A stretch of DNA of 24,000 nt from an uncultured Clostridia bacterium (GTDB lineage Bacteria > Bacillota > Clostridia > Christensenellales > UBA1242), in contig CAKVOD010000004.1 of the NCBI GenBank assembly GCA_934778205.1, forward strand, positions 40,219-64,218, given 5' to 3'. This document shows positions 507 to 22,900 of this stretch, piece after piece. The notes beneath the pieces were generated by a model. It was not told where the DNA came from, did no database searches, and saw only the letters and a program-made list of their open reading frames with translations. A program made the position numbers and the translations under genes. Every line of letters starts with the position of its first letter. Within the stretch, counting starts at the first letter, position 1.

Positions 507-2000
507 TTACCCTTTGTATTTGACAATGATTGTTTTAATCCACTTAATTCTTTGCTCAAAATTATCCCTTGAATCTCTATGATATTTAATATTTTGGAAG
601 AAAGGTGTATTTCCTTCTTTATCCACCTTTTCTTTTTCAAAATTGCGAAAATCTTCTAACATATTATTTAAATTTTCCAAACCAATCAAATTCTTTCTTG
701 CTAAACTAACAAATGTTAGTGATACCTCAAACAAAATCATATTTATTGGCGAATTATTCTCTAATCTGAATGCGTTTTGCCCCAAATATTTTAATGCGTC
801 TGAATATGATTGTAAAAAATCTTTTTCAATTTCATCAATCTGTTCGTCAGAAAAGGTATTAATTGCATCCATTGCTTCTGATAAAAAAGTATTTATTTCA
901 TTATACTCCACATTATGAGTAATTAATTTGCCATCATAATGTTTTAATTTGCCCTCAATATATAAACGCATTGCTATATATCTAAGCATTAAATACCTAT
1001 CTTTCATTCTATTTTTAGCGCTCAATGATAGAACATCTAATTCCTCAGATAATTTTTTCAACATATCCGTAATAGGTCCTTGATGCAAAGCGTGTCTAAG
1101 TTCTTGATTATTGAGTTTTATTCCCCCTTGATTTACTCTTTTGAATATTTGCAATTTGAATATTTCAGAAGTTTCAAATCCAACCCTAATAATATGCAAA
1201 TGAGCATCTTCTAATTTTGCTTTGTATTTTTCTAAATCTTCTGTTGAATTATTTGTCAAATCTCTACATTTTTTACCATTTAAATTCGTTAAAAATTCTA
1301 ATCCTCTTAGAGGATATTTATTATTTAAAAACTCAAATATAGCGGATAATCTTTGTCTCCCATCAATAACAATCAAGCTATTATTCTTGCCTTCATATAC
1401 GTAAATATATGGTATAGGAATTCCCAATAAAAGACTTTCTATTAATTGGCTTTTTTTCACGGAATTCCAAATGTTGTTTCGTTGAAATGTTTCATTAAGT
1501 ATAATTGCTCCAGAGCTACTACCAGAAAGAGTTCTATCATATCTTCTTTTTAACTCATAAACAGAATAATTCACTGGCTCACATTCAACATATTTCTTCT
1601 GTATATCATCAAAATTATTATCGTCATAATCATCACAAGACAAATCTTCATCTATCGTAGCTTCAGTATATGTATCAGACAACTTATTTTGATTGTATAA
1701 ATAGTATTCTGATGCAAATAAGCGTTGTTCACCCTCATTATTAATTGTCATAGTTGATAGATTTGAATCATAATCAACAAATCGTGGGTAGATTTTTTTG
1801 TGAGAAATTAAATTCCTTACTTTTTGACTAAATCTAGTATCTTTTCTTCCAAACAATATTTCAGCATCTTCACCTTGTGGATCTAAAACTTTTATCAATG
1901 ATTTTACTAAATCACTTGTCGTGATTGTACCTCCAACTCTATAAATTTCAAACAAAGCTGGATCTATCAATTCTTCTTCACAATATCTTTTTTCTTCCAT
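507..2000 (-). CDS. DUF262 (ParB/Srx-fold, GmrSD N-terminal-half-like) protein with an extra ~140-aa N-terminal region
   Basis: 497-aa ORF. DUF262 signatures are ETFQRNNIWNSVKKSQLIESLLLGIPIP and VIDGRQRLSAIFEFL, then NQGGIKLNNQELRHA. I saw no DUF1524/His-Me nuclease motif in the C-terminal half. Strong RBS AAGGAG 6 nt upstream of the ATG at 2000. Confidence 0.8.
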   Translation of the reverse strand: MEEKRYCEEELIDPALFEIYRVGGTITTSDLVKSLIKVLDPQGEDAEILFGRKDTRFSQKVRNLISHKKIYPRFVDYDSNLSTMTINNEGEQRLFASEYYLYNQNKLSDTYTEATIDEDLSCDDYDDNNFDDIQKKYVECEPVNYSVYELKRRYDRTLSGSSSGAIILNETFQRNNIWNSVKKSQLIESLLLGIPIPYIYVYEGKNNSLIVIDGRQRLSAIFEFLNNKYPLRGLEFLTNLNGKKCRDLTNNSTEDLEKYKAKLEDAHLHIIRVGFETSEIFKLQIFKRVNQGGIKLNNQELRHALHQGPITDMLKKLSEELDVLSLSAKNRMKDRYLMLRYIAMRLYIEGKLKHYDGKLITHNVEYNEINTFLSEAMDAINTFSDEQIDEIEKDFLQSYSDALKYLGQNAFRLENNSPINMILFEVSLTFVSLARKNLIGLENLNNMLEDFRNFEKEKVDKEGNTPFFQNIKYHRDSRDNFEQRIKWIKTIIVKYKG

Positions 2001-2010
2001 AAAAAACTCC

Positions 2011-3132
2011 TTAATAATTCATAATAATTAAATGCTTTACTTCTTTTTTGTTCCTATTTTTAAAACTTACAAAATAAGATTTGTTCTCTTCTATTATTCT
2101 TAATCCCTTATTTATATACAAACTTTTAATGAAATCTGTCTCTTTTATAACCAGCATAAAACGACATTTGCATTCATTTGTTAAATAATTAGCCAGTCTT
2201 ATTTGATCTTCCATCCCAAACGCATTCTTATCATATTCACTAAATGTAGTATCATATGGCGGATCTAAGAACATAAAGTCATTAGAATTAATTTCTATAT
2301 TATTTACGAAATCATAGAAATCATTTGTAGATAACGCGGTATTGTTTAATAATTCTCGCAAACTTTTTAATTTATAATAGGCTAATTTTGTCTTTAAAGT
2401 TTTTTTGTTATAAGAAACTCCTCCATATGGCACATTGAATCCTCCATTACTATTAAATCTAAACATAGAAGAATAACAATACTCCCTTATAAATAAATAA
2501 ACTGCAACCTTCCTTTTATTATCCAATCCTGCATACTCTTTAGGATTATTATAAGCATCTCTTAAATAAGTATAATATGCTGATTTAATACCTGCCTCTA
2601 AGTTGTTTTTTAACTCTTCACCTTCCAATTTTCTTTCTTTTTTTATCTCATTCTTTTTGATTAAGTTTATCCTTCTCAAAAGGCATTCTGATAAATATTT
2701 CTCAAACTTCACATTATTTCTTAAATTGAACATTGGTATATCATCAATCTTTTCATTTATAATTAAGCTTAAATCACTGGATATTTCTAAATTCTCATTT
2801 TCTCTAAATCTTAAATATAAGTTCATTAATCTTACATCATTTGCTAATTCTGTAAGCTTATCCCAATTTTGTATAATGTTTGTCAATTCATCAAAAAACG
2901 GTTTGCTATGGCTCTTTACATATTCGTATAAAAGCATTAACTCTTCTGATTTGTCATTTATATAATTTTTATTGTTGTTCGCCAAAGCGAAATAAACCGC
3001 TCCCCCGCCTACAAACGGCTCTATGTAATTATTAATCCCTTGTGGTAAATTATCAAGTATAATATTCAACTCAGATGTTTTCCCCCCAGGATACTTTAAT
3101 AACGGTTTTAAATTTTTATCTATATACATCAA
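2011..3132 (-). CDS. D12-class (Dam-like, alpha-type) N6-adenine DNA methyltransferase
   Basis: 373-aa ORF. N-terminal LKYPGGKTSEL and IEPFVGGGAVYF (AdoMet motif I), C-terminal FLDPPYDTT (catalytic motif IV). The track start at 3132 is TTG; the next codon (3129) is ATG, and either could be the real start. Confidence 0.9.
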   Translation of the reverse strand: MMYIDKNLKPLLKYPGGKTSELNIILDNLPQGINNYIEPFVGGGAVYFALANNNKNYINDKSEELMLLYEYVKSHSKPFFDELTNIIQNWDKLTELANDVRLMNLYLRFRENENLEISSDLSLIINEKIDDIPMFNLRNNVKFEKYLSECLLRRINLIKKNEIKKERKLEGEELKNNLEAGIKSAYYTYLRDAYNNPKEYAGLDNKRKVAVYLFIREYCYSSMFRFNSNGGFNVPYGGVSYNKKTLKTKLAYYKLKSLRELLNNTALSTNDFYDFVNNIEINSNDFMFLDPPYDTTFSEYDKNAFGMEDQIRLANYLTNECKCRFMLVIKETDFIKSLYINKGLRIIEENKSYFVSFKNRNKKEVKHLIIMNY

Positions 3133-7721: not shown

Positions 7722-10289
7722 TTAAATCACTATCCAATTGTTGACATTTCCAGCGCCAGAAATAGTTATCGTGATATTTGTATCGGCAGTAACACCGTTC
7801 TCATATATTTTCTTGCGCGTTGTTTCCGTTACGCCAGCGGTTGCGTCATTGAACGTGCAAACCGAATACAATGTCTCATATACCATTATTGAAAACTTGG
7901 TACTTACTTCGATTTGAAAGGAATAACTTTTGCCATTTTGTGCAACAACTTGCCTTGTCGGATTGTTGTCCGCATCCAAAATGTACACAATAAAATCTCT
8001 ATCAATTTTTATATCAAAAGTGATTTGTACATATTTTGTTGTTGAAGGCGTTGTACTTTCTTCCCAGTTAGCGGTGTACAATTTATTTCCATATCCTGAA
8101 ACACGCATATTTAGTCTCTTAGTACTACTTGTTGGACTAGTCCACCCCGTGAAAGTATAGCCTGATTTCACAGGTGTTCCTAAGTAAAATCCACTTGTAC
8201 TATTAGTATATGATGTCACCTTATTAGAAAGTATACCGCCGTCTAGATTGTAGGCAATTATATACTCAATATCTCCAAATCCAACATCTTTGACATAAAT
8301 CGTAGCATCACTATCCCCCGCAGTATAATATGTGATAGGGTTAGTGCCATCTTCGTTGAGCGAAAAAGTTGCAGAGATGGTCTTTTTCCCTATCTTACTA
8401 TATAGGTTTATCTTTGATAAATTAATCAACATTCCTTTTTTCAAAGATATACAACTAATAGTATTAGAAGATGATGCACTAGATTCATACTTAAATGACA
8501 ACGTAACTGTATCAAATTTCAAATAAGGGGCACCATGCCCGTTACCATACTCATCACCATCACTTCCGTCATTTTGAAAATCCCAAACCGTATCAAAATT
8601 CCACGAATAATTTGCATCCCAATGTGTGGATGCCGAAAATTGCGACTTATTGTGCGCTAAGGCATCTAGCTCTGTTTTGCTTTTTCTAACAACATTATTA
8701 AACGTATTGGCGTCACCCGCTGATATCCTTCCACCACTTGAATCATCTAAGCATATGCCACTAATGTTATCCCCATAAGATGTTGTTCCTGCCATATATC
8801 CCCAAAATTGAGTACCTATAAAAGCTGTCCCATTACCATTCCATGGTATAAAATCAACAGCATTCAAGCATTGCTGAATTTTCGCACCTAAAGATAAATA
8901 TCCCGCAATTCCACCCATATATACGGACACTGTCATATTTGATGGGGGTTCACATAGTCTTATATAATTGACACAATTTACGATAATTCCATTATCAATA
9001 TATCCTACAATCCCACCTATACTAGATCCATTTGACCCCTTAAAATACTCCGACACGCTCACTATGGTGCCATCGCCGACACAATTGCTCACGATAGAAG
9101 ATTCAGTTGTCACTTTTCCGACAATACCCCCCACAAAAAGCCCATCACCATTACTGCGACCACTCAAATTCATATTGACCCATCCTCTACTATTAGACAC
9201 TTTGCCTCCTTCCGATAGTCCGACTACGCCACCTATATAAGTCATATCTCCATAATAGATGCCATCAGCGCTACATGAACCACTAGACTTTTCAACGGTA
9301 ACACCACTTCCAATTTTACCGGCGATACCACCTAAATAACCGTCTTTACATCTATCTACACTTGGCGAATTATTGCTAAAGCAGCCGCTTATAGTCCCTT
9401 TGATCATTTGCCCGATAATACCACCGCTATAAATATCATATCGATCCACTATCCGATTCACCTCAATCGTAGCACAGTTAAAACAATTAGTGATATTTAA
9501 TGTTCCGCCTCCGCCTTGAGAACCAACTATTCCGCCGACATATTCGGCCTGTTGTCCAGAATCGTAAAAATAAATCGTTCCATAATTGTGACAATTTTCT
9601 ATATTAACACTTCCACTACTACCAATTTGTTGTACTGCTCCAACTATTCCGCCTGCTTGCGAACCCCCTGAAATTATAATTTCAGCCGTGTTATAACAAT
9701 TTTTTATTGTTACTGTTGAAGAATTAGGCCGCAAAAAAACTTGCTTCGCAATTGCTCCAATAACAGCAGTTGAAGTAGGGCTAATTGTCCCTCCTATTCC
9801 TACATTCAAAATCTGCGCACCAGAATTCAGTCTAACAAATAATCCATTATAAGCACTATCAAAAGTGATTACTTTGTTATTGCCATCAAAAATGCCATTA
9901 AAGCTTGAAATCCCGTCCCAATGCATCTCTTCCCCAACAACTATATATGTTGCAGGAACGCTAATGTCGGCAGTCAATTTGTATGATTTATCTAAAAGCG
10001 TATTTCCGCTCGCATCGGCACCTCCCTTCAAATATAGCAATTGCTCAAAGGTTGCAATTTGATATGGGTTTGATTCCGTACCGTCGCCAGCGGCAAAACT
10101 CGTTGCGACATTGACAGTGTTTGCACTATCCACTGAGATTGTTTTCTGTGGATTTTTTGCTGTGTTCAAAGTGATTGCAAGCACCAAGCCGACACACGAC
10201 AAAACCAACAAAAGCCACAGCACGATTTGAACTGGAGCGAATAGGTGTTTATTCAGTTTTACATTGTTGTTTTTGTTGAGGTTTTTCAT
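7722..10289 (-). CDS. Large signal-anchored surface protein with GLUG-type repeats and a Listeria-Bacteroides (Flg_new) repeat
   Basis: 855 aa. The N-terminus is basic then hydrophobic (LFAPVQIVLWLLLVLSCVGLVLAITL). At least 8 G-G-I/V-V/A-G motifs are present (AGGIVGAV, VGGIVGSQ, SGGIIGQM, LGGIAGKI, IGGVVGLS, VGGIVGKV, IGGIVGYI, MGGIAGYL). YNLDGG...GYTFTGWTS is typical of the Flg_new repeat. RBS GGAGGTG lies upstream of the ATG at 10289. Confidence 0.85.
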   Translation of the reverse strand: MKNLNKNNNVKLNKHLFAPVQIVLWLLLVLSCVGLVLAITLNTAKNPQKTISVDSANTVNVATSFAAGDGTESNPYQIATFEQLLYLKGGADASGNTLLDKSYKLTADISVPATYIVVGEEMHWDGISSFNGIFDGNNKVITFDSAYNGLFVRLNSGAQILNVGIGGTISPTSTAVIGAIAKQVFLRPNSSTVTIKNCYNTAEIIISGGSQAGGIVGAVQQIGSSGSVNIENCHNYGTIYFYDSGQQAEYVGGIVGSQGGGGTLNITNCFNCATIEVNRIVDRYDIYSGGIIGQMIKGTISGCFSNNSPSVDRCKDGYLGGIAGKIGSGVTVEKSSGSCSADGIYYGDMTYIGGVVGLSEGGKVSNSRGWVNMNLSGRSNGDGLFVGGIVGKVTTESSIVSNCVGDGTIVSVSEYFKGSNGSSIGGIVGYIDNGIIVNCVNYIRLCEPPSNMTVSVYMGGIAGYLSLGAKIQQCLNAVDFIPWNGNGTAFIGTQFWGYMAGTTSYGDNISGICLDDSSGGRISAGDANTFNNVVRKSKTELDALAHNKSQFSASTHWDANYSWNFDTVWDFQNDGSDGDEYGNGHGAPYLKFDTVTLSFKYESSASSSNTISCISLKKGMLINLSKINLYSKIGKKTISATFSLNEDGTNPITYYTAGDSDATIYVKDVGFGDIEYIIAYNLDGGILSNKVTSYTNSTSGFYLGTPVKSGYTFTGWTSPTSSTKRLNMRVSGYGNKLYTANWEESTTPSTTKYVQITFDIKIDRDFIVYILDADNNPTRQVVAQNGKSYSFQIEVSTKFSIMVYETLYSVCTFNDATAGVTETTRKKIYENGVTADTNITITISGAGNVNNWIVI

Positions 10290-10373
10290 TACATCACCTC
10301 CACAACGCGGGCGTTGTTTACGACAATGCTGAAAGGACTCAAATTGAGGCTTTTATGGCTTTTGGTGGATAGA

Positions 10374-10433
10374 CCCCTTCCGGGAGATTTCTCCGCTGCA
10401 GCGAACAAGTTCGCTTTCGGTCGAAATGACAAA
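10374..10433 (-). repeat. Interspersed three-hairpin element, copy A (in the 5' leader of the GLUG gene)
   Basis: The plus strand reads CCCCTTCCGGGAGATTTCTCC-GCTGCA-GCGAACAAGTTCGC-TTTCGGTCGAAATGACAAA. The conserved flanks are identical to copy B at 22466-22529. Confidence 0.6.
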
Positions 10434-10584
10434 AAGAATGTACGCTGTCCGTCCTCCATTGTTTGGCACTCAAGTTCAATATCAGTGCAAGAGTCGTTTT
10501 CAATTGCTTGCGAGTCTTGTAAATATTGCAAGTTCTTGCAGAAATGTTGTTGTTTTTCGCAGTTTAACCTATCAAAATAATAGG

Positions 10585-10638
10585 TTAAACTACATACCCC
10601 CCCCCCCCCATTCGTGGAGCATTTGTTCTATTATTCAT
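10585..10638 (-). promoter_or_regulatory. 17-codon leader ORF containing the G13 tract (MNNRTNAPRMGGGGYVV*)
   Basis: RBS GAGGTG, 6 nt, ATG at 10638. The G tract begins inside codon 10. With 13 G the frame stops at TAA 10587-10585. Confidence 0.45.
10597..10609 (-). repeat. Homopolymeric tract, 13 G on the coding strand (13 C on plus)
   Basis: Counted directly from the sequence: ...tacata CCCCCCCCCCCCC attcgtgg.... Confidence 0.95.
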
Positions 10639-10670
10639 TTGTTTCACCTCACTTAATGAATTATAAATTT

Positions 10671-10699
10671 AGTTTACCACAATTATGAAAAAATATCAA
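10671..10699 (-). promoter_or_regulatory. Promoter of the GLUG-gene leader (TTGATA-17-TGGTAAACT, extended -10)
   Basis: Minus strand: TTGATA (10699-10694), 17 nt, TGG TAAACT (-10 at 10676-10671). Two TGCAAAA direct repeats 11 bp apart lie just upstream (plus strand 10703-10720). Confidence 0.55.
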
Positions 10700-10814
10700 A
10701 TGTTTTGCAGTATTTTTGCACTTTTTGTGAAAATGTTAATTCCCTGTTAATTCTCTATTGATTCTCAACGTGCTATTTTGATAGTTGCAAGCACGTGATT
10801 TTATCTAGACATCA

Positions 10815-12561: not shown

Positions 12562-15500
12562 CTAACCGAGATAATAATCGGTCATTTTGTTTATTAAACA
12601 ATTTGTAATCAAGCCCATTCCATCTGCATTAGGATGCACTCTATCTATTGTATAGGTGCTTGCCGTTTCAATATTTATTCCGCTATCAGCATAAACATCT
12701 ACAACAGGGCAACCATAGTGCGTCGCGATTGCTTTTATGATATCATTAAATTCATTGATAACTGCAGTTGGATTTACATTGCCGTTGTAATCTTTGTAAT
12801 TTGCATTATTATCCACAAATCCCGCATAATGAATTGTCATACAAAATACGTCTGCGCTACTATATTTTTGCGTCATTTTATAAATCATTAGAGCGTACGC
12901 TTCGTCAAATGACGACGGCACTGTCAGTGTTCCGTTTTCGATTTTCGTAAATAGGTCATCCGTCACAACTTTGTGCGCAACTGGACTACCTAATTGACAA
13001 AAGTCGTTCGTACCCATAAATACAGCGATTACGTCAGGCTGTTTCCCTGTGTTGTCATTGTGAAGATTTACTGAACGCGTATTCCACGCCGAACTAGCAT
13101 CGGTATTGCCCGACCCTGACAAATAAGTATGCGAACCAGACCACGAATTGTTAACGCAAAGATTCATTCCAAGTTGATTTATCGTTCGCATCCACCATGT
13201 GTCATTGACTGAAAGTGTTTTCAAAATACCAGGATACGCTACAGCATTTCCACCAATTGTTGAGTTATACTTTGTGATGTTGTTGTATCCCGAATATGTG
13301 CTAATACTATCGCCCAAAATTGATAAACTTTTCCCTTTCAATACGCTTTTCACTGATTTAGTACCATAAAAACCAATCGGCAAATTAATTATATTAGTAA
13401 AATTTGTTTTTCCATTTATAGTTTTTATTCCTAAATTGCTTGAAATGACATCAAAATAATATACCAAAACAATTGTGTCTGTCGCTGAGCCAAAAGCCAA
13501 TGTTTGCCCTGACTTTACGCGAATATCAAGATTGTCAAACGTGACCCAACCACCTGTCGTGCTATAATTTTGCGTAAAAGCAGTAATTTGCGTGGCATTC
13601 ATTGTCAATTTTTGCGAACTAATTATTGTGTGCGAACCGTCCGTTTCGGCTTCAGCACCTACTATGTGCAAAGTAAATTCCGCTGAAGATGTTGAATTTA
13701 TTTTCTTTACTGGTAGTACAATTCTGTTTATAATCGTTTTTTCAAACATACTTGTGCCATACATCCAAATGAACTCATTATTAACAGTTAATTCCTTCCA
13801 TTTACTATCAGCTGAAACATCTAAATTAAACAATTGTTGCTCATTGACGCCAGTCAATGAATCAAGTGGCGTAACATCGTATTGCGTGTAGCCATATATA
13901 TCAATAACTAAACTATAATTTTGATATTTTTGCCCACTTGCCCACGAAGTAAAGGCACGGTCGGTGTTTGTATTCTTTGTCGAGTACAACAAAGTTATCG
14001 TGTCGTCACTCGCGCAAAATGCTATTGTTTGCTGGACGCCGACATCAATGTTTAACTCATCAAATGTCAGCCACACAGCGCATTTATCACTTGAAGTATC
14101 CGCCGTCTGTAGCGCTTTCCACTTCGCAATTTCACTTGCCGTAAGTATTAGGTTATAACTGCGCGCGACTTCTCCATTTGTGGTGTTGACAACACTGACA
14201 GTCAAAAAGGCGTTCAGATCATTTATTATATTATAAACAGGCACAACAAATTTTGTAATTGTTTTATTTTCAAACACCTTGCTATTTGAGTACGCAAATA
14301 ACCCGCTTGAGGAAAGATTGTTTAGTACGGCAAATTCTTGCGAATCAAGAGATAGTTTTGAACTTACAATTTCTTTCGCTGAGTTGCTTTGCAATAAGTT
14401 TGAGTATCTATCCCCTCTTTGAACATAGACATCAATAGGCAGTATACCACCTGACCACCCCAACCACGTTGGCGAAATCATTATTCGCTCAGTATCCTCT
14501 GTTCCGCTAAAAAATAGAATACCCATTGTTCCGCTATTCCAGCAACCAAAGGCGATTGTTTCGTCTTTTCCTACGTCAATGTTGAGATTGTCAAATGTTA
14601 TCCACGATTGTCGCTGAAAATTTTTGAACTGCGCTTCTGTAAGTGACAATTTGTGCGTCGAACGCAAGTAATCACTTTGAAACTCCGCTTGCTGCACGCC
14701 ATTTTCATATTCTTCGCCCTTGCTTCTATCAATTTTTTTGTTGATTACAAACAAGTTTATATAAGCGCCGCTTGCATTTGTGACTGATGCGTCGATTTGA
14801 TATATAGGTACAGTGAGTTTAGTTATTACCCTGCCCGAAATTCGATTCGTTATATCTTCATTGAAGCGCCAAATGTAATTGGGATTTAATGTTGCTGTAT
14901 CAGCAAATGTTTCATACTTCATAGCAATAGAATTTTGCATCAACAAATAGTCATTGCCCGACCGTCCATATATATCCAAAAGAAGCGAAGAACTTGTTAC
15001 CACCTCCCATGTTGTTTGAGATTCTGTATTTGTTTTACAAACATAATACGCATGAGATGAGTTCTCGTCTGCTATGCCATTTGCATAGCCTATTGATACT
15101 GTGTCCGCGCTATCCGTAAAGGCAAGTGTTTCATCGTTGCCAACAAGTATATTTAGATTACTGAACATTACCCACTTATTTTTGTCGTCCGCATTCCAAT
15201 CAATTATTTGTTCTTCACTCATTTCTAAGCGGTAAGTTCGCACAACGTCAAATTTTCCGCGAGTGGCTTTTATTACTTTAACCGTCCAAAACTTCACACC
15301 TGCCGATTCATTGATTGAATACACAGGCGCAACGATTTTTGTTATTAGTTTATCTTTGAATAAATCGGTATTTTTATAAACATATCCATTGACAGAAGAT
15401 GTCACGTTATCTAATTTTGTGGTCGCACTTTCGCCCAAAATATTGCTAGAAAGCCCAGTTGTTAATCTATCACTATAAGCAAAAACATCGAACATTAGCG

Positions 15501-16149
15501 AAAACATTGTTATGTCCCACCACTGTCCTTTTTGGACATAATCTTTACCACACCCATAAAACCCACGTCCACCTATCTTTTGTTTGCTATAACAAACTCC
15601 GAGTGAGTCATTATAACTTACAAAGGCGAGGGTTTCACCATCTAAAACTTTAATATTCAAATCTTTAAATGTCACCCACGCCCCGATAATAGGATTAAAT
15701 GAATCAATAAATTCTTGAGACACGTATAACTTATGCGTTTGATGTACCTCGAATGCCCCTTTTTTATTTGAAATTACAAAAACCGTCATAAAAACATTGC
15801 TAGTTGCTTTGATTTGATAAACAGGTGCAACAATTTTTGTTATTGTTTTGTTTTCAAACATATTTAGATTTTCAAAACAATATGGACCAAATTTATTTTC
15901 ACCATTACCCGCATTTAAATTTAAATAATTTTGATCAGCGCCAAAACCAATATTACCTTCGCCAGTCAATGCGGGGAATAAATCAAAACTATCTCCTGCA
16001 ACACAGTTCGTAAGTTCTACAGGCGTCGGCTGTTTAAATCTAATTACACCCCACGCACTTTTGCTGGAACTCAACGCCGACAAAGTTGTGGCGCAAACAA
16101 TCATCAAAAAAACTACTAGCACCCAAGTCAAGAACGCAACATTTTGCAA
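12562..16149 (-). CDS. Large signal-anchored surface protein: five copies of an unassigned ~175-aa domain plus a C-terminal SGNH/GDSL hydrolase. The 5' end is apparently frameshifted by the G13 tract.
   Basis: 1195-aa ORF whose track start is a TTG with no RBS. The hydrophobic anchor is LTWVLVVFLMIVCATTLSAL. The SGNH blocks are LSILGDSIS (G at 13314-13312), FMGTNDF and DRVHPNADG. An ATG at 16246 with RBS AGGAG joins this frame if the tract has 12 or 15 G. Confidence 0.85.
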   Translation of the reverse strand: MQNVAFLTWVLVVFLMIVCATTLSALSSSKSAWGVIRFKQPTPVELTNCVAGDSFDLFPALTGEGNIGFGADQNYLNLNAGNGENKFGPYCFENLNMFENKTITKIVAPVYQIKATSNVFMTVFVISNKKGAFEVHQTHKLYVSQEFIDSFNPIIGAWVTFKDLNIKVLDGETLAFVSYNDSLGVCYSKQKIGGRGFYGCGKDYVQKGQWWDITMFSLMFDVFAYSDRLTTGLSSNILGESATTKLDNVTSSVNGYVYKNTDLFKDKLITKIVAPVYSINESAGVKFWTVKVIKATRGKFDVVRTYRLEMSEEQIIDWNADDKNKWVMFSNLNILVGNDETLAFTDSADTVSIGYANGIADENSSHAYYVCKTNTESQTTWEVVTSSSLLLDIYGRSGNDYLLMQNSIAMKYETFADTATLNPNYIWRFNEDITNRISGRVITKLTVPIYQIDASVTNASGAYINLFVINKKIDRSKGEEYENGVQQAEFQSDYLRSTHKLSLTEAQFKNFQRQSWITFDNLNIDVGKDETIAFGCWNSGTMGILFFSGTEDTERIMISPTWLGWSGGILPIDVYVQRGDRYSNLLQSNSAKEIVSSKLSLDSQEFAVLNNLSSSGLFAYSNSKVFENKTITKFVVPVYNIINDLNAFLTVSVVNTTNGEVARSYNLILTASEIAKWKALQTADTSSDKCAVWLTFDELNIDVGVQQTIAFCASDDTITLLYSTKNTNTDRAFTSWASGQKYQNYSLVIDIYGYTQYDVTPLDSLTGVNEQQLFNLDVSADSKWKELTVNNEFIWMYGTSMFEKTIINRIVLPVKKINSTSSAEFTLHIVGAEAETDGSHTIISSQKLTMNATQITAFTQNYSTTGGWVTFDNLDIRVKSGQTLAFGSATDTIVLVYYFDVISSNLGIKTINGKTNFTNIINLPIGFYGTKSVKSVLKGKSLSILGDSISTYSGYNNITKYNSTIGGNAVAYPGILKTLSVNDTWWMRTINQLGMNLCVNNSWSGSHTYLSGSGNTDASSAWNTRSVNLHNDNTGKQPDVIAVFMGTNDFCQLGSPVAHKVVTDDLFTKIENGTLTVPSSFDEAYALMIYKMTQKYSSADVFCMTIHYAGFVDNNANYKDYNGNVNPTAVINEFNDIIKAIATHYGCPVVDVYADSGINIETASTYTIDRVHPNADGMGLITNCLINKMTDYYLG

Positions 16150-16201
16150 AATTTTGCAGGATACCCGCTGTTTTATGCAAGTATCTTGCTCATTTTGACA
16201 C

Positions 16202-16246
16202 CTATGCCCCCCCCCCCCCGTTTATGTTCTTGTTTTTAAAAATCAT
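16202..16246 (-). promoter_or_regulatory. 14-codon leader ORF containing the G13 tract (MIFKNKNINGGGGA*); probably the true 5' end of the SGNH-protein CDS in the ON phase
   Basis: RBS TAGGAGC, 7 nt, ATG at 16246. Reading ATG ATT TTT AAA AAC AAG AAC ATA AAC then G13 gives GCA TAG. I checked that removing one G puts this ATG in frame with TTG CAA AAT GTT GCG at 16149. Confidence 0.6.
16207..16219 (-). repeat. Homopolymeric tract, 13 G on the coding strand (13 C on plus)
   Basis: Counted directly from the sequence: ...cctatg CCCCCCCCCCCCC gtttatg.... Confidence 0.95.
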
Positions 16247-16282
16247 AATTTTTGCTCCTAATACTAAATTTTAATCACTATT

Positions 16283-16311
16283 ATTTTAACACAATCAAAA
16301 AAAAATATCAA
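16283..16311 (-). promoter_or_regulatory. Promoter of the SGNH surface-protein gene (TTGATA-17-TGTTAAAAT, extended -10)
   Basis: Minus strand: TTGATA (16311-16306), 17 nt, TGT TAAAAT (-10 at 16288-16283). Two TGACAAA direct repeats 10 bp apart lie just upstream (plus strand 16317-16333). Confidence 0.55.
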
Positions 16312-16383
16312 ATAAATTTGTCACATTTTGTCAAAAAATTAAAAAAGCACACAGAAAATTAACTATGTACTCTTTTAGATAGT

Positions 16384-19785: not shown

Positions 19786-19862
19786 GTTCCAATAGCTCAG
19801 CTGGATAGAGCGTCCCCCTCCTAAGGGGAAGGTCAGGGGTTCAAATCCCTTTTGGAACACCA
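19786..19862 (+). tRNA. tRNA-Arg (anticodon CCU), CCA-encoded
   Basis: I folded it by hand. Acceptor GTTCCAA/TTGGAAC; D arm GCTC-AGCTGGATA-GAGC; anticodon arm TCCCC-CTCCTAA-GGGGA (anticodon CCT); variable loop AGGTC; T arm AGGGG-TTCAAAT-CCCTT; discriminator A plus CCA. Confidence 0.93.
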
Positions 19863-20152: not shown

Positions 20153-21475
20153 ATGAATGATTATGAATTTGGCAAAAAGATTTATGAATTAAGAAAAAGT
20201 GCTAACCTTTCTCAAAAAGAACTTGGCAAGGAGTTGGGCGTTTCGGACAAAGCCGTTTCTAAGTGGGAAAATGGCGAGGGCTATCCTTCTCCTTTCCAAC
20301 TGGTAAATATTTCCGAACTTTTTGACGTCAGCATTGACAGTTTGCTAAAACTAAAGTCAAGCAAAGACAAAGTCGTTCACAAAATTGTTTTAACAGGCGG
20401 TCCGTGCGCGGGCAAGTCGACGGCGCTTAGTTGGATACAGTCAGAGTTTACCAAACGCGGTTACTGCGTTTTGATTGTGCCTGAAACGGCTACTGAATTG
20501 ATACTCGCGGGGCTTGCGCCTCAGGCTTATGACTCAATGATTAGTTTTGAAAAGAATATTCTTTCCCTACAACTTGAAAAGGAAAAAATATTTGAAGATG
20601 CTGTCAAACATATGCCAAAATACAATAAATTTCTCATTGTTTGCGACAGAGGAACAATGGATTGCAAGGCGTATATGTCCGATTTGCAGTTCAAAAAATG
20701 CTTGAATACTTTGGGCACAAATGAAGTTTCGCTTCGCGATGATTACGATGCGGTGTTTCACCTAGTTTCAGCAGCAATTGGCGCTGAAGAACACTACAAT
20801 CTTGACAATGCGGCACGTCAAGAAACAAAAGAACAGGCAATCGAACAAGATAAAAAGACTCTCAATTCGTGGATTGGGCACCCTCACTTACGCGTGATTG
20901 ACAATTCGTCGGACTTCAAAGAAAAGATATTGCGCTTGCTCAAAGAAATCTCACTGTTTCTCGGCGAACCTGACCCTTATGAAATCGAACGCAAATTCTT
21001 GATTGAAATGCCAAATGTTGACAAACTAAATAAAATGGAAAACTGTTCCAAAGTTGACATTGTCCAAACATATTTAAAAGTTGGGCAAGATGAAGAAATG
21101 CGCGTGCGTCAACGCGGTCAAAATGGGCAATTTACATACACCAAAACCACCAAACGCAAAGTCAGTGACACAAAACGTATTGAAACTGAAACACGCATTA
21201 CTGCTGAAGAATACATAAATTCACTGCTTGAGTCAAATGGTAGCCACTATCAAATTACAAAAACAAGATACTGCTTGATGTATAAGAACCAATATTTTGA
21301 AATTGACATTTATCCATTTATGAAAGATAAAGCGATTATGGAAATTGAACTAAATGATGAAAACCAAAAAATTGATTTCCCTAGATTTATTAAGATTGTC
21401 GAAGAAGTCACAGGTAAAAAAGAGTTTAGCAACTGCGAACTCGCTCAAAAACAAACACTCCAACTTGAAAAGTAA
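20153..21475 (+). CDS. Fusion protein: XRE-type HTH + P-loop kinase-like ATPase (AAA_28/NadR-C-like) + CYTH (triphosphate tunnel) domain
   Basis: 440 aa. The HTH is IYELRKSANLSQKELGKELGVSDKAVSKWENGEGYPS. Walker A LTGGPCAGKST lies at 20396-20422, followed by ...VPETATE... and ...VCDRGTMDCKAY.... The CYTH ExExK signature YEIERKFLI lies at 20981-20995. Confidence 0.85.
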   Translation: MNDYEFGKKIYELRKSANLSQKELGKELGVSDKAVSKWENGEGYPSPFQLVNISELFDVSIDSLLKLKSSKDKVVHKIVLTGGPCAGKSTALSWIQSEFTKRGYCVLIVPETATELILAGLAPQAYDSMISFEKNILSLQLEKEKIFEDAVKHMPKYNKFLIVCDRGTMDCKAYMSDLQFKKCLNTLGTNEVSLRDDYDAVFHLVSAAIGAEEHYNLDNAARQETKEQAIEQDKKTLNSWIGHPHLRVIDNSSDFKEKILRLLKEISLFLGEPDPYEIERKFLIEMPNVDKLNKMENCSKVDIVQTYLKVGQDEEMRVRQRGQNGQFTYTKTTKRKVSDTKRIETETRITAEEYINSLLESNGSHYQITKTRYCLMYKNQYFEIDIYPFMKDKAIMEIELNDENQKIDFPRFIKIVEEVTGKKEFSNCELAQKQTLQLEK

Positions 21476-22573: not shown

Positions 22574-22900
22574 TTCACACACACCAAACCTGCACCTGTG
22601 GTGTATGCCACCGAGAACTAAAACTAATTTGAAATGCAAAGCTGCGCCACACACACAAACAACTTGCACGTAGAAAAGTACCTGCAGCCGTGAGGCTTTC
22701 CCCACACGAAAGTAAGAGTATATAAAATATACGTAAGCGTGCCGGATTCAAAACTAAATTACTTGTAGGAATAGTACCTGCAGCCGTGAGGCTTTCCCCA
22801 CACGAAAGTAAGAGTATATAAAATATACGTAAGCGTGCCGGATTCAAAACTAAATTACTTGTAGGAATAGTACCTGCAGCCGTGCGCTATCGCACCCACC
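22574..22900 (-). repeat. Tandem array of a ~96-bp structured unit: one diverged copy, two identical copies, and a terminal partial copy abutting the dnaB stop
   Basis: GTACCTGCAGCCGTG recurs at 22678, 22774 and 22870 (period 96). Units 22678-22773 and 22774-22869 are identical base for base. 22574-22677 is a diverged relative. Confidence 0.85.

Follow-up and report, generated by a model that had tools for sequence, protein, structure and literature searches.

A poly-G tract in the leader of an SGNH hydrolase gene from an uncultured gut Clostridia bacterium: a probable slipped-strand phase-variation locus in its OFF state

The window considered here, a stretch of 24,000 nt from an uncultured Clostridia bacterium (Christensenellales, UBA1242; GenBank assembly GCA_934778205.1, contig CAKVOD010000004.1, positions 40,219–64,218), carries on its minus strand a gene for a large surface protein with a C-terminal SGNH hydrolase domain, in the 5' coding region of which lies a run of 13 G residues (G13). 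This gene is probably a slipped-strand translational phase-variation (contingency) locus that was caught OFF, as an earlier note on this DNA had proposed. The frame logic of the tract, the selection acting on the gene and the finding of both G12 and G13 at a paralogous copy uphold the proposal; the tract of the SGNH gene itself was found without variation, and we infer that it switches at a high, reversible rate. The tract belongs to a 5' cassette, the copies of which are referred to as E1 (the SGNH gene), E2 (a second cassette in the window), E3 (a copy on contig L005) and E4 (a third copy, outside the window).

At E1, an AGGAG Shine-Dalgarno (SD) sequence (16259–16255, minus strand) is followed, after a spacer of 8 nt, by ATG 16246–16244, which opens a leader of nine codons (MIFKNKNIN); the G13 tract (16219–16207), GCA and the stop codon TAG (16204–16202) come next. 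As sequenced, this is an open reading frame (ORF) of 14 codons, translated as MIFKNKNINGGGGA and then a stop. The frame of the long ORF is open from 16221, a TAA (16224–16222) standing immediately upstream, and its first canonical start is TTG 16149, 97 nt below ATG 16246. No SD sequence is present in the 20 nt preceding this TTG (cagcgggtatcctgcaaaatt), and a protein initiated there would begin MQNVAFLTW..., without a charged n-region. When the tract was replaced in silico by G9 to G17, the lengths G9, G12 and G15 yielded proteins of 1226, 1227 and 1228 amino acids (aa), respectively, in which the tract is read as Gly3–5, and G10, G11, G13, G14, G16 and G17 yielded only 13–25 aa. The N-terminal peptide predicted for E1 read from ATG 16246 is MIFKNKNINGGGG... 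/ MIFKNKNINGGGGHR.... The earlier note had described a G13 tract within the 5' coding region, a long ORF with neither an ATG nor a ribosome-binding site at its TTG, a well-placed ATG 97 nt upstream, a frame that dies right after the 13 Gs and a membrane anchor near the N-terminus; each of these was found, the anchor in the form of a hydrophobic helix (16137–16072) that aligns with the transmembrane (TM) helices of orthologues. Its prediction that the gene would be ON with 12 or 15 Gs was reproduced by the simulation, which adds G9.

The tract stands far above what base composition predicts. At the G+C content of the window (about 37%), about 4e-5 runs of at least 13 C or G would be expected per 24 kb, and the only two G/C runs longer than 6 in the window are both G13 and both on the minus strand. 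The run also exceeds the homopolymer length of at least about 8 that characterizes simple sequence repeat contingency loci, and it is placed, as at such loci, where one unit decides the frame (G12, 1227 aa; G13, 14 aa). Related loci totalling about 260 kb, in part redundant, contained no further G/C run of at least 8; the tracts are thus restricted to the 5' ends of large membrane-anchored proteins that vary between strains.

The position of the true start can be assessed from homologues of the SGNH protein and of its N-terminus. A search of 5.8 billion clusters returned only two other homologues, P0002 (49% identity) and P0003 (43%). At the orthologous loci (L005 and L006), the gene has a plain SD sequence and ATG, 2–8 codons before the TM helix (AAGAGGTGAAAATATG...MQKIKMGIAFFLW and TATAGGAGAAAATATG...MKITRNNLIMYICW), and there is no tract inside the SGNH coding sequence of either locus. 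A scan of GTDB genomes with the SGNH protein gave only distant SGNH domains (29–32% identity) and no orthologous locus, and a scan of JGI metagenomes for a G run with the motif found 3' of the tracts gave a single match, L015, with an unrelated G22 sequence. Judging from L005 and L006, the lineage of the window appears to have lost the ordinary SGNH start and to carry an ATG-leader-poly-G segment in its place. An alignment further defined a family of N-terminal modules composed of M-x(0-9)-Gly4-5, a block of the form ...[HY]YF..N.EKQQDT... and then a TM helix. The members with poly-Gly N-termini are P0036 and the more distant P0031 (MYKMGGGGGKRK...), P0032 (MKFAQKSGGGGGYNRS...), P0039 (MKFAQKSGGGGYKRN...), P0040 (MNKNGGGGGYKRN...), P0041 (MLQMGGGGAC...) and P0042 (MGGGGYNSY...). 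The peptide encoded in frame by 16206–16150 of the window (HRCQNEQDTCIKQR; HRCQNEQDTC...) aligns onto the EKQQDT block; the long-ORF frame is therefore likely to be the coding frame of this segment, in which case translation begins 5' of the tract; this supports ATG 16246 as the genuine start of the SGNH gene.

The copy designated E4 provides the evidence for variation in tract length. It was found via contig L010, in which a promoter and leader of about 85% identity, located after divIVA, are joined to sequence from downstream of E2. In its normal context (L016, reached via DivIVA homologues), the E4 cassette runs straight into the TM helix of a protein of 1024–1031 aa, with no internal start. 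One form of this protein, P0036 (1031 aa; four contigs in NCBI and ENA; N-terminus MKNRTNAPRMGGGGVYKSSH...), reads MKNRTNAPRMGGGGVYK... from G12 via the leader ATG. Other allele types in the E4 protein cluster start differently: P0037 and P0038, out of frame at G13, begin MLHEWGGGGVYK... and were called from an out-of-frame ATG within the leader, and P0030 begins MLHEGGGGGVYK.... At the DNA level, E4 reads ...CGAAT-G12-CGTATATAAG in L030 (ERZ28613859), which puts the leader ATG in frame. In L031 (ERZ4561326, the sample that also carries the interrupted E1 tract described below), E4 has G13 and is out of frame. Length polymorphism, G12 versus G13, is thus present at this paralogous copy, which is ON at the very length computed for the SGNH gene. 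Neither E4 nor its gene is present in relatives with 93% and 85% identical DivIVA, in which divIVA is followed directly by cvpA. The junction by which E4 came to light (L010/L017, 6600–6700) lies in a 325-kb MEGAHIT contig, where the E4 promoter and leader run into the sequence that follows E2, with its 855-aa gene, the shared stretch consisting of only about 36 nt of leader plus G13; it is either a recombination between cassettes or a repeat-made chimera.

The E1 tract itself was compared across assemblies, and all tract lengths given here come from consensus assemblies. The identical protein (P0001) is found on further assemblies, four of which, besides the window, have G13 at E1: L003/L009 (ENA ERZ4567976), L004 (Logan ERR7745859) and L014 (ERZ27286952). 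The contig of L011 (ERZ4561613) terminates within the tract. A second strain (P0005/P0006, 94% amino-acid identity) has been assembled twice (L007, ERZ27286984; L008, ERZ4561326) and has an interrupted run, G6-T-G6 (GGGGGGTGGGGGG; L007/L008 6931–6943), which is again 13 nt long and in the OFF frame, as in the window. Complete assemblies are thus G13 in 5/7 cases (window included) and G6TG6 in 2/7. Over the 274-nt leader region, the two strains differ at six positions, with the promoter, SD sequence and leader almost invariant. The two differences in or near the tract, 16213 G>T (GGG>GGT) and 16201 G>A (AGG>AGA), are both synonymous in the long-ORF frame, and the T at 16213 would encode Trp in the ATG frame. 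In the second strain, E1 is OFF (G6TG6), E4 is OFF (G13) and E2 is missing together with its gene, such that all three switches are silent or absent.

The body of the SGNH gene is under purifying selection and is not a decaying pseudogene. Between the window and the second strain, there are 117.5 synonymous and 83.5 non-synonymous differences (201 in total), corresponding to a synonymous divergence (dS) of 0.171, a non-synonymous divergence (dN) of 0.030 and a dN/dS of 0.177; the same ratio is 0.034 for nrdD and 0.022 for the CNNM gene. Because this ratio is accompanied by an intact ORF of 1195 codons, with no stop and no frameshift, in both strains, the gene must be considered to be maintained. 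In the leader and the 5' 200 codons, dS is only about 0.01–0.02, which suggests a recent recombination block.

The second G13 tract of the window (E2) has the same order of elements: a promoter, the SD sequence GAGGTG, ATG 10638, nine codons plus ATG, and then G13. The promoter, SD sequence and leader align at the DNA level across the cassette copies. As sequenced, E2 encodes MNNRTNAPRMGGGGYVV and then a stop; at G14, the leader ORF would extend to 116 codons, and its post-tract peptide (YYFDRLNCEKQQ) aligns with the family module. The tract was also read as G13 in L009, L010 and L011. It lies about 300 nt upstream of the gene's own start, which belongs to an 855-aa protein paralogous to the 1024-aa protein of E4, and both cassette and gene are absent from the second strain. 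E2 may couple translation, or exert polarity, in a phase-variable manner; alternatively, it may be what is left of an N-terminus that was once fused. E3, a G14 tract in L005 (1–270), lies right at the contig end and precedes the gene for the 49%-identical SGNH orthologue by about 550 nt. The tract is followed by a Cys-rich ORF of 78 codons; the orthologue's gene is equipped with a promoter-like site, an SD sequence and an ATG of its own.

A hairpin of 11–13 bp follows each of these tracts (16156–16189 in E1, 38–71 of L005 in E3 and 10567–10595 in E2). That of E1, within 16150–16206, has 13 bp (arms 16189–16177 and 16168–16156) and an RNA fold z of -3.5, and it differs from that of L005 by compensatory changes (GCAAGATACTTGC/GCGGGTATCCTGC vs GCAGTTATCCTGC/GCAGGATAACTGC). 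The distance from tract to hairpin is 17 nt in E1 and 6 nt in E2. Intrinsic termination was ruled out as a function, as none of the three is followed by a U-tract. The 6-nt distance at E2 had prompted consideration of -1 programmed ribosomal frameshifting, which was dropped in view of the opposite shift required at E1, the 17-nt distance there and the existence of in-frame alleles. A search with Rfam at both gathering and permissive thresholds matched only a tRNA (19786–19859) and gave no riboswitch, leader or frameshift element.

Several observations weigh against phase variation of the SGNH gene. The earlier note had asked for tract lengths in other isolates or metagenome-assembled genomes; the 13 nt were reproduced, and length variation was not seen at E1, where every complete assembly has 13 nt. 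Both E1 and E2 are exactly 13 nt long in all assemblies, although free drift of a hypermutable tract predicts otherwise. The second strain is in the OFF frame with an interrupted and presumably stabler run, yet its ORF is intact, which fits a recent lock and, equally, expression independent of the tract. No E1 product read from ATG 16246 was recovered in a homologue search of about 15 billion proteins (cluster members have 1180–1197 aa), and an exact look-up in the same collection found neither the predicted G12 product of E1 nor the ON product of E2. The samples are possibly non-independent, several of them coming from one Hadza data set and sharing a host label. Possible reasons for the uniform length, the missing ON product and the OFF-frame G6TG6 allele on an intact ORF are the relatedness of the samples, selection against expression in the gut, or a recent lock.

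The explanation that best survives besides phase variation, although an unlikely one, is expression independent of the tract, initiated internally with TTG 16149 or with another TTG, GTG or ATG close by, the ATG-poly-G ORF being a separate leader peptide or regulatory element. Gene callers do begin the protein with TTG 16149 or with the ATG that opens 'MIVCATT', the strain with G6TG6 shares the frame state and has an ORF that is intact and under selection, and the poly-G leaders of E2 and E3 lie 300–550 nt upstream of genes with their own SD sequence and ATG. At E1, however, there is no SD sequence before any in-frame start, and the stretch from the tract to the TM helix has neither an SD sequence nor an ATG, although TTG 16149 is in frame; the TTG start leaves no charged n-region and the ATG start halves the TM helix. 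The sequence 5' of TTG 16149 moreover encodes the family module in the long-ORF frame, and E4, likewise continuous from leader to body, uses the leader ATG when its tract is G12.

Marginally less likely still is a fixed G13 combined with recoding, in which a +1/-2 frameshift on GGG-G or RNA polymerase slippage would provide constitutive low-level expression. Such a mechanism would account for the invariance of the 13-nt length at both window tracts in all assemblies, G6TG6 included, for the synonymy of both 16213 G>T and 16201 G>A in the long-ORF frame, and for the hairpin after each tract, that of E2 being 6 nt away. One mechanism cannot, however, serve both a +1 shift at E1 and a -1 shift at E2. 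The E1 hairpin begins beyond the classic stimulator range (5–9 nt), the A-site codon at the shift point is GCA, neither slow nor a stop, no frameshift element was found in Rfam, and E4 and the family members carry in-frame tracts, for which recoding is not needed. E1 thus lacks the features of a programmed-frameshift or transcriptional-slippage site.

Inactivation of a once in-frame gene, now decaying with a tract that has no switching role, is a very improbable account: the OFF frame in 7/7 complete assemblies and in two strains is what it would predict, but the ORF is intact in both strains at a dN/dS of 0.18 and a dS of 0.17, the promoter, SD sequence and leader are almost invariant, and the same cassette is ON elsewhere (E4). 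The last and least credible explanation, an assembly or sequencing error of 1 nt hiding a true G12, had been offered as the alternative in the earlier note and draws on the difficulty of long G runs for Illumina sequencing and on the breaking of contigs at these tracts, but it is refuted, because the interrupted G6TG6 run, which is not prone to length errors, has the same 13 nt and frame in two assemblies, and G13 recurs in four further assemblies, across assemblers and samples (SPAdes-style NODE contigs, k141 contigs, Logan).

With phase variation as the preferred reading, expression of the SGNH gene can be envisaged as follows. Transcription would proceed from the gene's own promoter (16311–16283), and the ribosome would bind at AGGAG, initiate at ATG 16246 and translate the nine-codon leader and then the poly-G. 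With G12 (or G9/G15), the tract would be translated as Gly3–5 and followed by the short cytoplasmic segment HRCQNEQDTC..., the membrane helix, five beta-sandwich repeats and the C-terminal SGNH esterase, yielding a 1227-aa membrane-anchored or secreted enzyme. With G13, translation would stop at TAG 16204 after 14 codons and the body, lacking its own SD sequence and start, would not be made. Slipped-strand mispairing at replication would gain or lose one G and so toggle the state.

Read from its N-terminus, the predicted product consists of a cytoplasmic module, a single TM or signal helix, five repeats and the SGNH hydrolase. The hydrolase domain (about 12598–13332) matches PF13472 (51.7 bits; cut-off 32.9), PF16255 (41.8; 29.2) and PF00657 (34.1; 23.6), and its translation contains the block I GDS motif ('SILGDSIS') and the block V DxxH motif ('DRVHPNADG') that mark membership of the SGNH/GDSL family. 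The five repeats (protein residues about 63–947) have about 175 aa each and a mutual identity of 26–35%. They have no match in Pfam or NCBIfam, and NCBIfam searches with the three large proteins found only a Listeria-Bacteroides repeat. An AF2 model of one repeat (mean confidence score, pLDDT, 73) is a beta-sandwich, for which comparison with the PDB gave nothing significant (best E = 0.1) and hence no functional clue from the fold. The repeat unit may represent an undescribed extracellular domain family, and the likeliest product, as predicted from its domains, is a cell-surface carbohydrate or lipid esterase.

Upstream, the terminator-like hairpin after nrdG would set the SGNH gene apart as a transcription unit of its own. 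Promoters homologous to that of E1 precede E2 (10699–10671) and E4. In the SGNH promoter, a T9 run (16305–16297, minus strand) takes up half of the 17-nt spacer; the run is T9 in every strain seen at E1, T6 in E2 and T5/T6 in E4, and slippage altering the spacer length could constitute a second, transcriptional switch. Direct repeats with a spacing of 10–11 nt stand just 5' of the -35 hexamers, as TGACAAA at E1 (16317–16333) and as two TGCAAAA boxes at E2 (10703–10726). On the other side of the tracts, a motif YTGCRWAAAA-N11-CTGCAA is conserved in E1, E2 and E3 (window 16147–16180; L005 54–80). These repeats and this motif may be regulator binding sites, which they resemble, or may merely reflect shared ancestry. 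The features of the two window cassettes are listed in Table 1.

Table 1. Coordinates, in the 24,000-nt window, of the features of the E1 and E2 cassettes and their genes
Feature	Position	Strand	Basis or remark
Terminator-like hairpin and T-run after nrdG	16340..16377	-	Terminator scan
Two direct TGACAAA boxes, 10 nt apart, just 5' of the -35 hexamer	16317..16333	-	Sequence, alignment
Sigma-70-type promoter TTGATA-N17-TAAAAT with TG extension	16283..16311	-	10/12 match
SD sequence AGGAG	16255..16259	-	8 nt before ATG
ATG (16246–16244) and 9-codon leader MIFKNKNIN	16220..16246	-	Sequence, translation
G13 tract, proposed slipped-strand switch	16207..16219	-	Out of frame at G13; in frame at G9/G12/G15
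TAG closing the 14-codon ORF in the G13 state	16202..16204	-	Translation
Segment predicted to be coding only in the in-frame state (HRCQNEQDTCIKQRVSCKI)	16150..16206	-	Homologous to the N.EKQQDT cytoplasmic module (alignment)
Hydrophobic helix AFLTWVLVVFLMIVCATTLSAL, membrane anchor or signal-peptide core	16072..16137	-	Kyte-Doolittle >2 over 19-residue windows
SGNH gene body, 1195 codons from TTG 16149 (ORF-finder call)	12562..16149	-	ORF call, profiles
E2 promoter TTGATA-N17-TAAACT (10699–10671), SD GAGGTG (10650–10645), ATG (10638–10636)	10636..10699	-	Homologous to the E1 cassette
E2 G13 tract in leader ORF MNNRTNAPRM-Gly4-YVV-stop	10597..10609	-	G11/G14/G17 extend the ORF to 115–117 aa
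E2 post-tract ORF, 102 codons in the G14 frame	10289..10596	-	Stop overlaps the start of the 855-aa gene (TAATG)
855-aa GLUG/Listeria-Bacteroides-repeat surface protein	7722..10289	-	Own SD GGAGGTG and ATG

In this species, the cassette fronts at least three accessory genes for surface proteins, and at the SGNH gene it appears to have replaced the ordinary SD sequence and ATG that orthologues have elsewhere. More tentatively, and with rather less than even confidence, it can be suggested that this is a portable phase-variation cassette, composed of a promoter with TG(A)CAAA boxes, an SD sequence, an ATG, a leader of up to about nine codons, G12–16 and the N.EKQQDT module, which has been grafted by recombination onto unrelated accessory surface genes, the replaced SGNH start included. 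If so, the E4-E2 junction in L010/L017 would be a real cassette exchange and not a mis-assembly, and the E2 variant would be a switchable upstream ORF of 116 codons, coupled through TAATG to a gene with its own start.

In pilC of Neisseria, the tract is located within the region coding for the signal peptide. As at E1, a run of about 9–20 Gs a few codons past the start lies upstream of the export signal of a surface protein, one G toggles the frame and paralogous copies switch independently, as the cassette genes would; an entry citing Jonsson et al. (1991) gives pilC of Neisseria gonorrhoeae and Neisseria meningitidis as a genic G(9-20) tract (PMC5953494). The present locus differs from pilC in its host, an uncultured, low-GC, spore-forming gut Firmicute, in encoding an unrelated protein and in having the tract within a larger cassette (promoter, leader and cytoplasmic module); switching has been demonstrated for pilC and is deduced here. 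The opa genes of Neisseria form a paralogous family with CTCTT repeats in the region coding for the leader peptide. They resemble the cassette genes in that a family of surface proteins shares a repeat switch in the N-terminal leader, with copies independently ON or OFF, but the opa repeat, listed as CTTCT(7-21) genic (PMC5953494), is a pentamer on paralogous bodies, whereas a homopolymer on unrelated bodies (an SGNH esterase versus GLUG/Flg_new-repeat proteins) is found here.

Campylobacter jejuni NCTC11168 has 29 loci with poly-G/C tracts of at least 7 (PMC4965091). It, too, dwells in the gut and has several intragenic poly-G tracts in surface-related genes with frame-dependent ON and OFF states; its tracts are mostly G8–G11, in genes for glycan-modifying enzymes and at varied positions of the coding sequence, whereas those described here are G12–G16, invariably placed near codon 10 in genes for large membrane-anchored proteins, within a homologous 5' cassette. 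Phase-locking through tract interruption has been engineered in C. jejuni (PMC8437040). The G6-T-G6 run resembles these locks in that it is interrupted at unchanged length, with GGG>GGT synonymous in the long-ORF frame; it differs in being natural and in that it would lock the OFF frame. Phase variation in Clostridioides difficile involves invertible promoters (cwpV, pdcB, cmrRST; PMC11868660) and likewise affects surface or signalling genes in Clostridia, but it proceeds by site-specific DNA inversion, whereas repeat slippage, with no inverted repeats or recombinase, would be involved here.

Elsewhere in the window, a tandem repeat (22673–22884) with a 96-bp unit, 2.2 copies and 99% identity lies between dnaB and an exonuclease III gene; it is absent from L007, has no match in Rfam and gives no fold signal (z = -0.4). 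A Dam-family methyltransferase adjoins a GmrSD_N-type protein at the left end (507–3132), and an HTH-AAA_28 (RstR/DicA-like) regulator (20153–21475) adjoins the tRNA; both regions are possible defence or mobile-element genes flanking the locus.

To our knowledge, multi-locus phase variation by repeat slippage has been documented almost entirely in pathogens (Neisseria, Haemophilus, Campylobacter, Helicobacter). A 2025 review asks whether this restriction is real or a database bias, and the phase variation it describes for Clostridia is DNA inversion (PMC11868660). No poly-G phase variation was found for Clostridia or other gut Firmicute commensals in a search of full-text literature; the mechanism is, very probably, one already known from pathogens, in a host group for which the phase variation described so far is DNA inversion. 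On the preferred reading, gene callers systematically mis-start poly-G genes, as illustrated by TTG 16149, 'MIVCATT' and 'MLHEW...', and contigs end in, or scaffolds have gaps at, the tracts of L011, L016, L018 and L020. Around E4, a gap of Ns falls on the tract in L016, the sequence of L018 stops at G7, and those of L020 and L021 stop within the leader. Assemblies break at these tracts, and metagenome catalogues would therefore under-report such genes. A portable cassette, if it exists, would imply a multi-locus phasome in an uncultured, spore-forming gut commensal. Strain-variable surface-protein genes under poly-G control, at least three of them in this uncultured Firmicute of the human gut, would point to immune- or phage-driven bet-hedging in a commensal.

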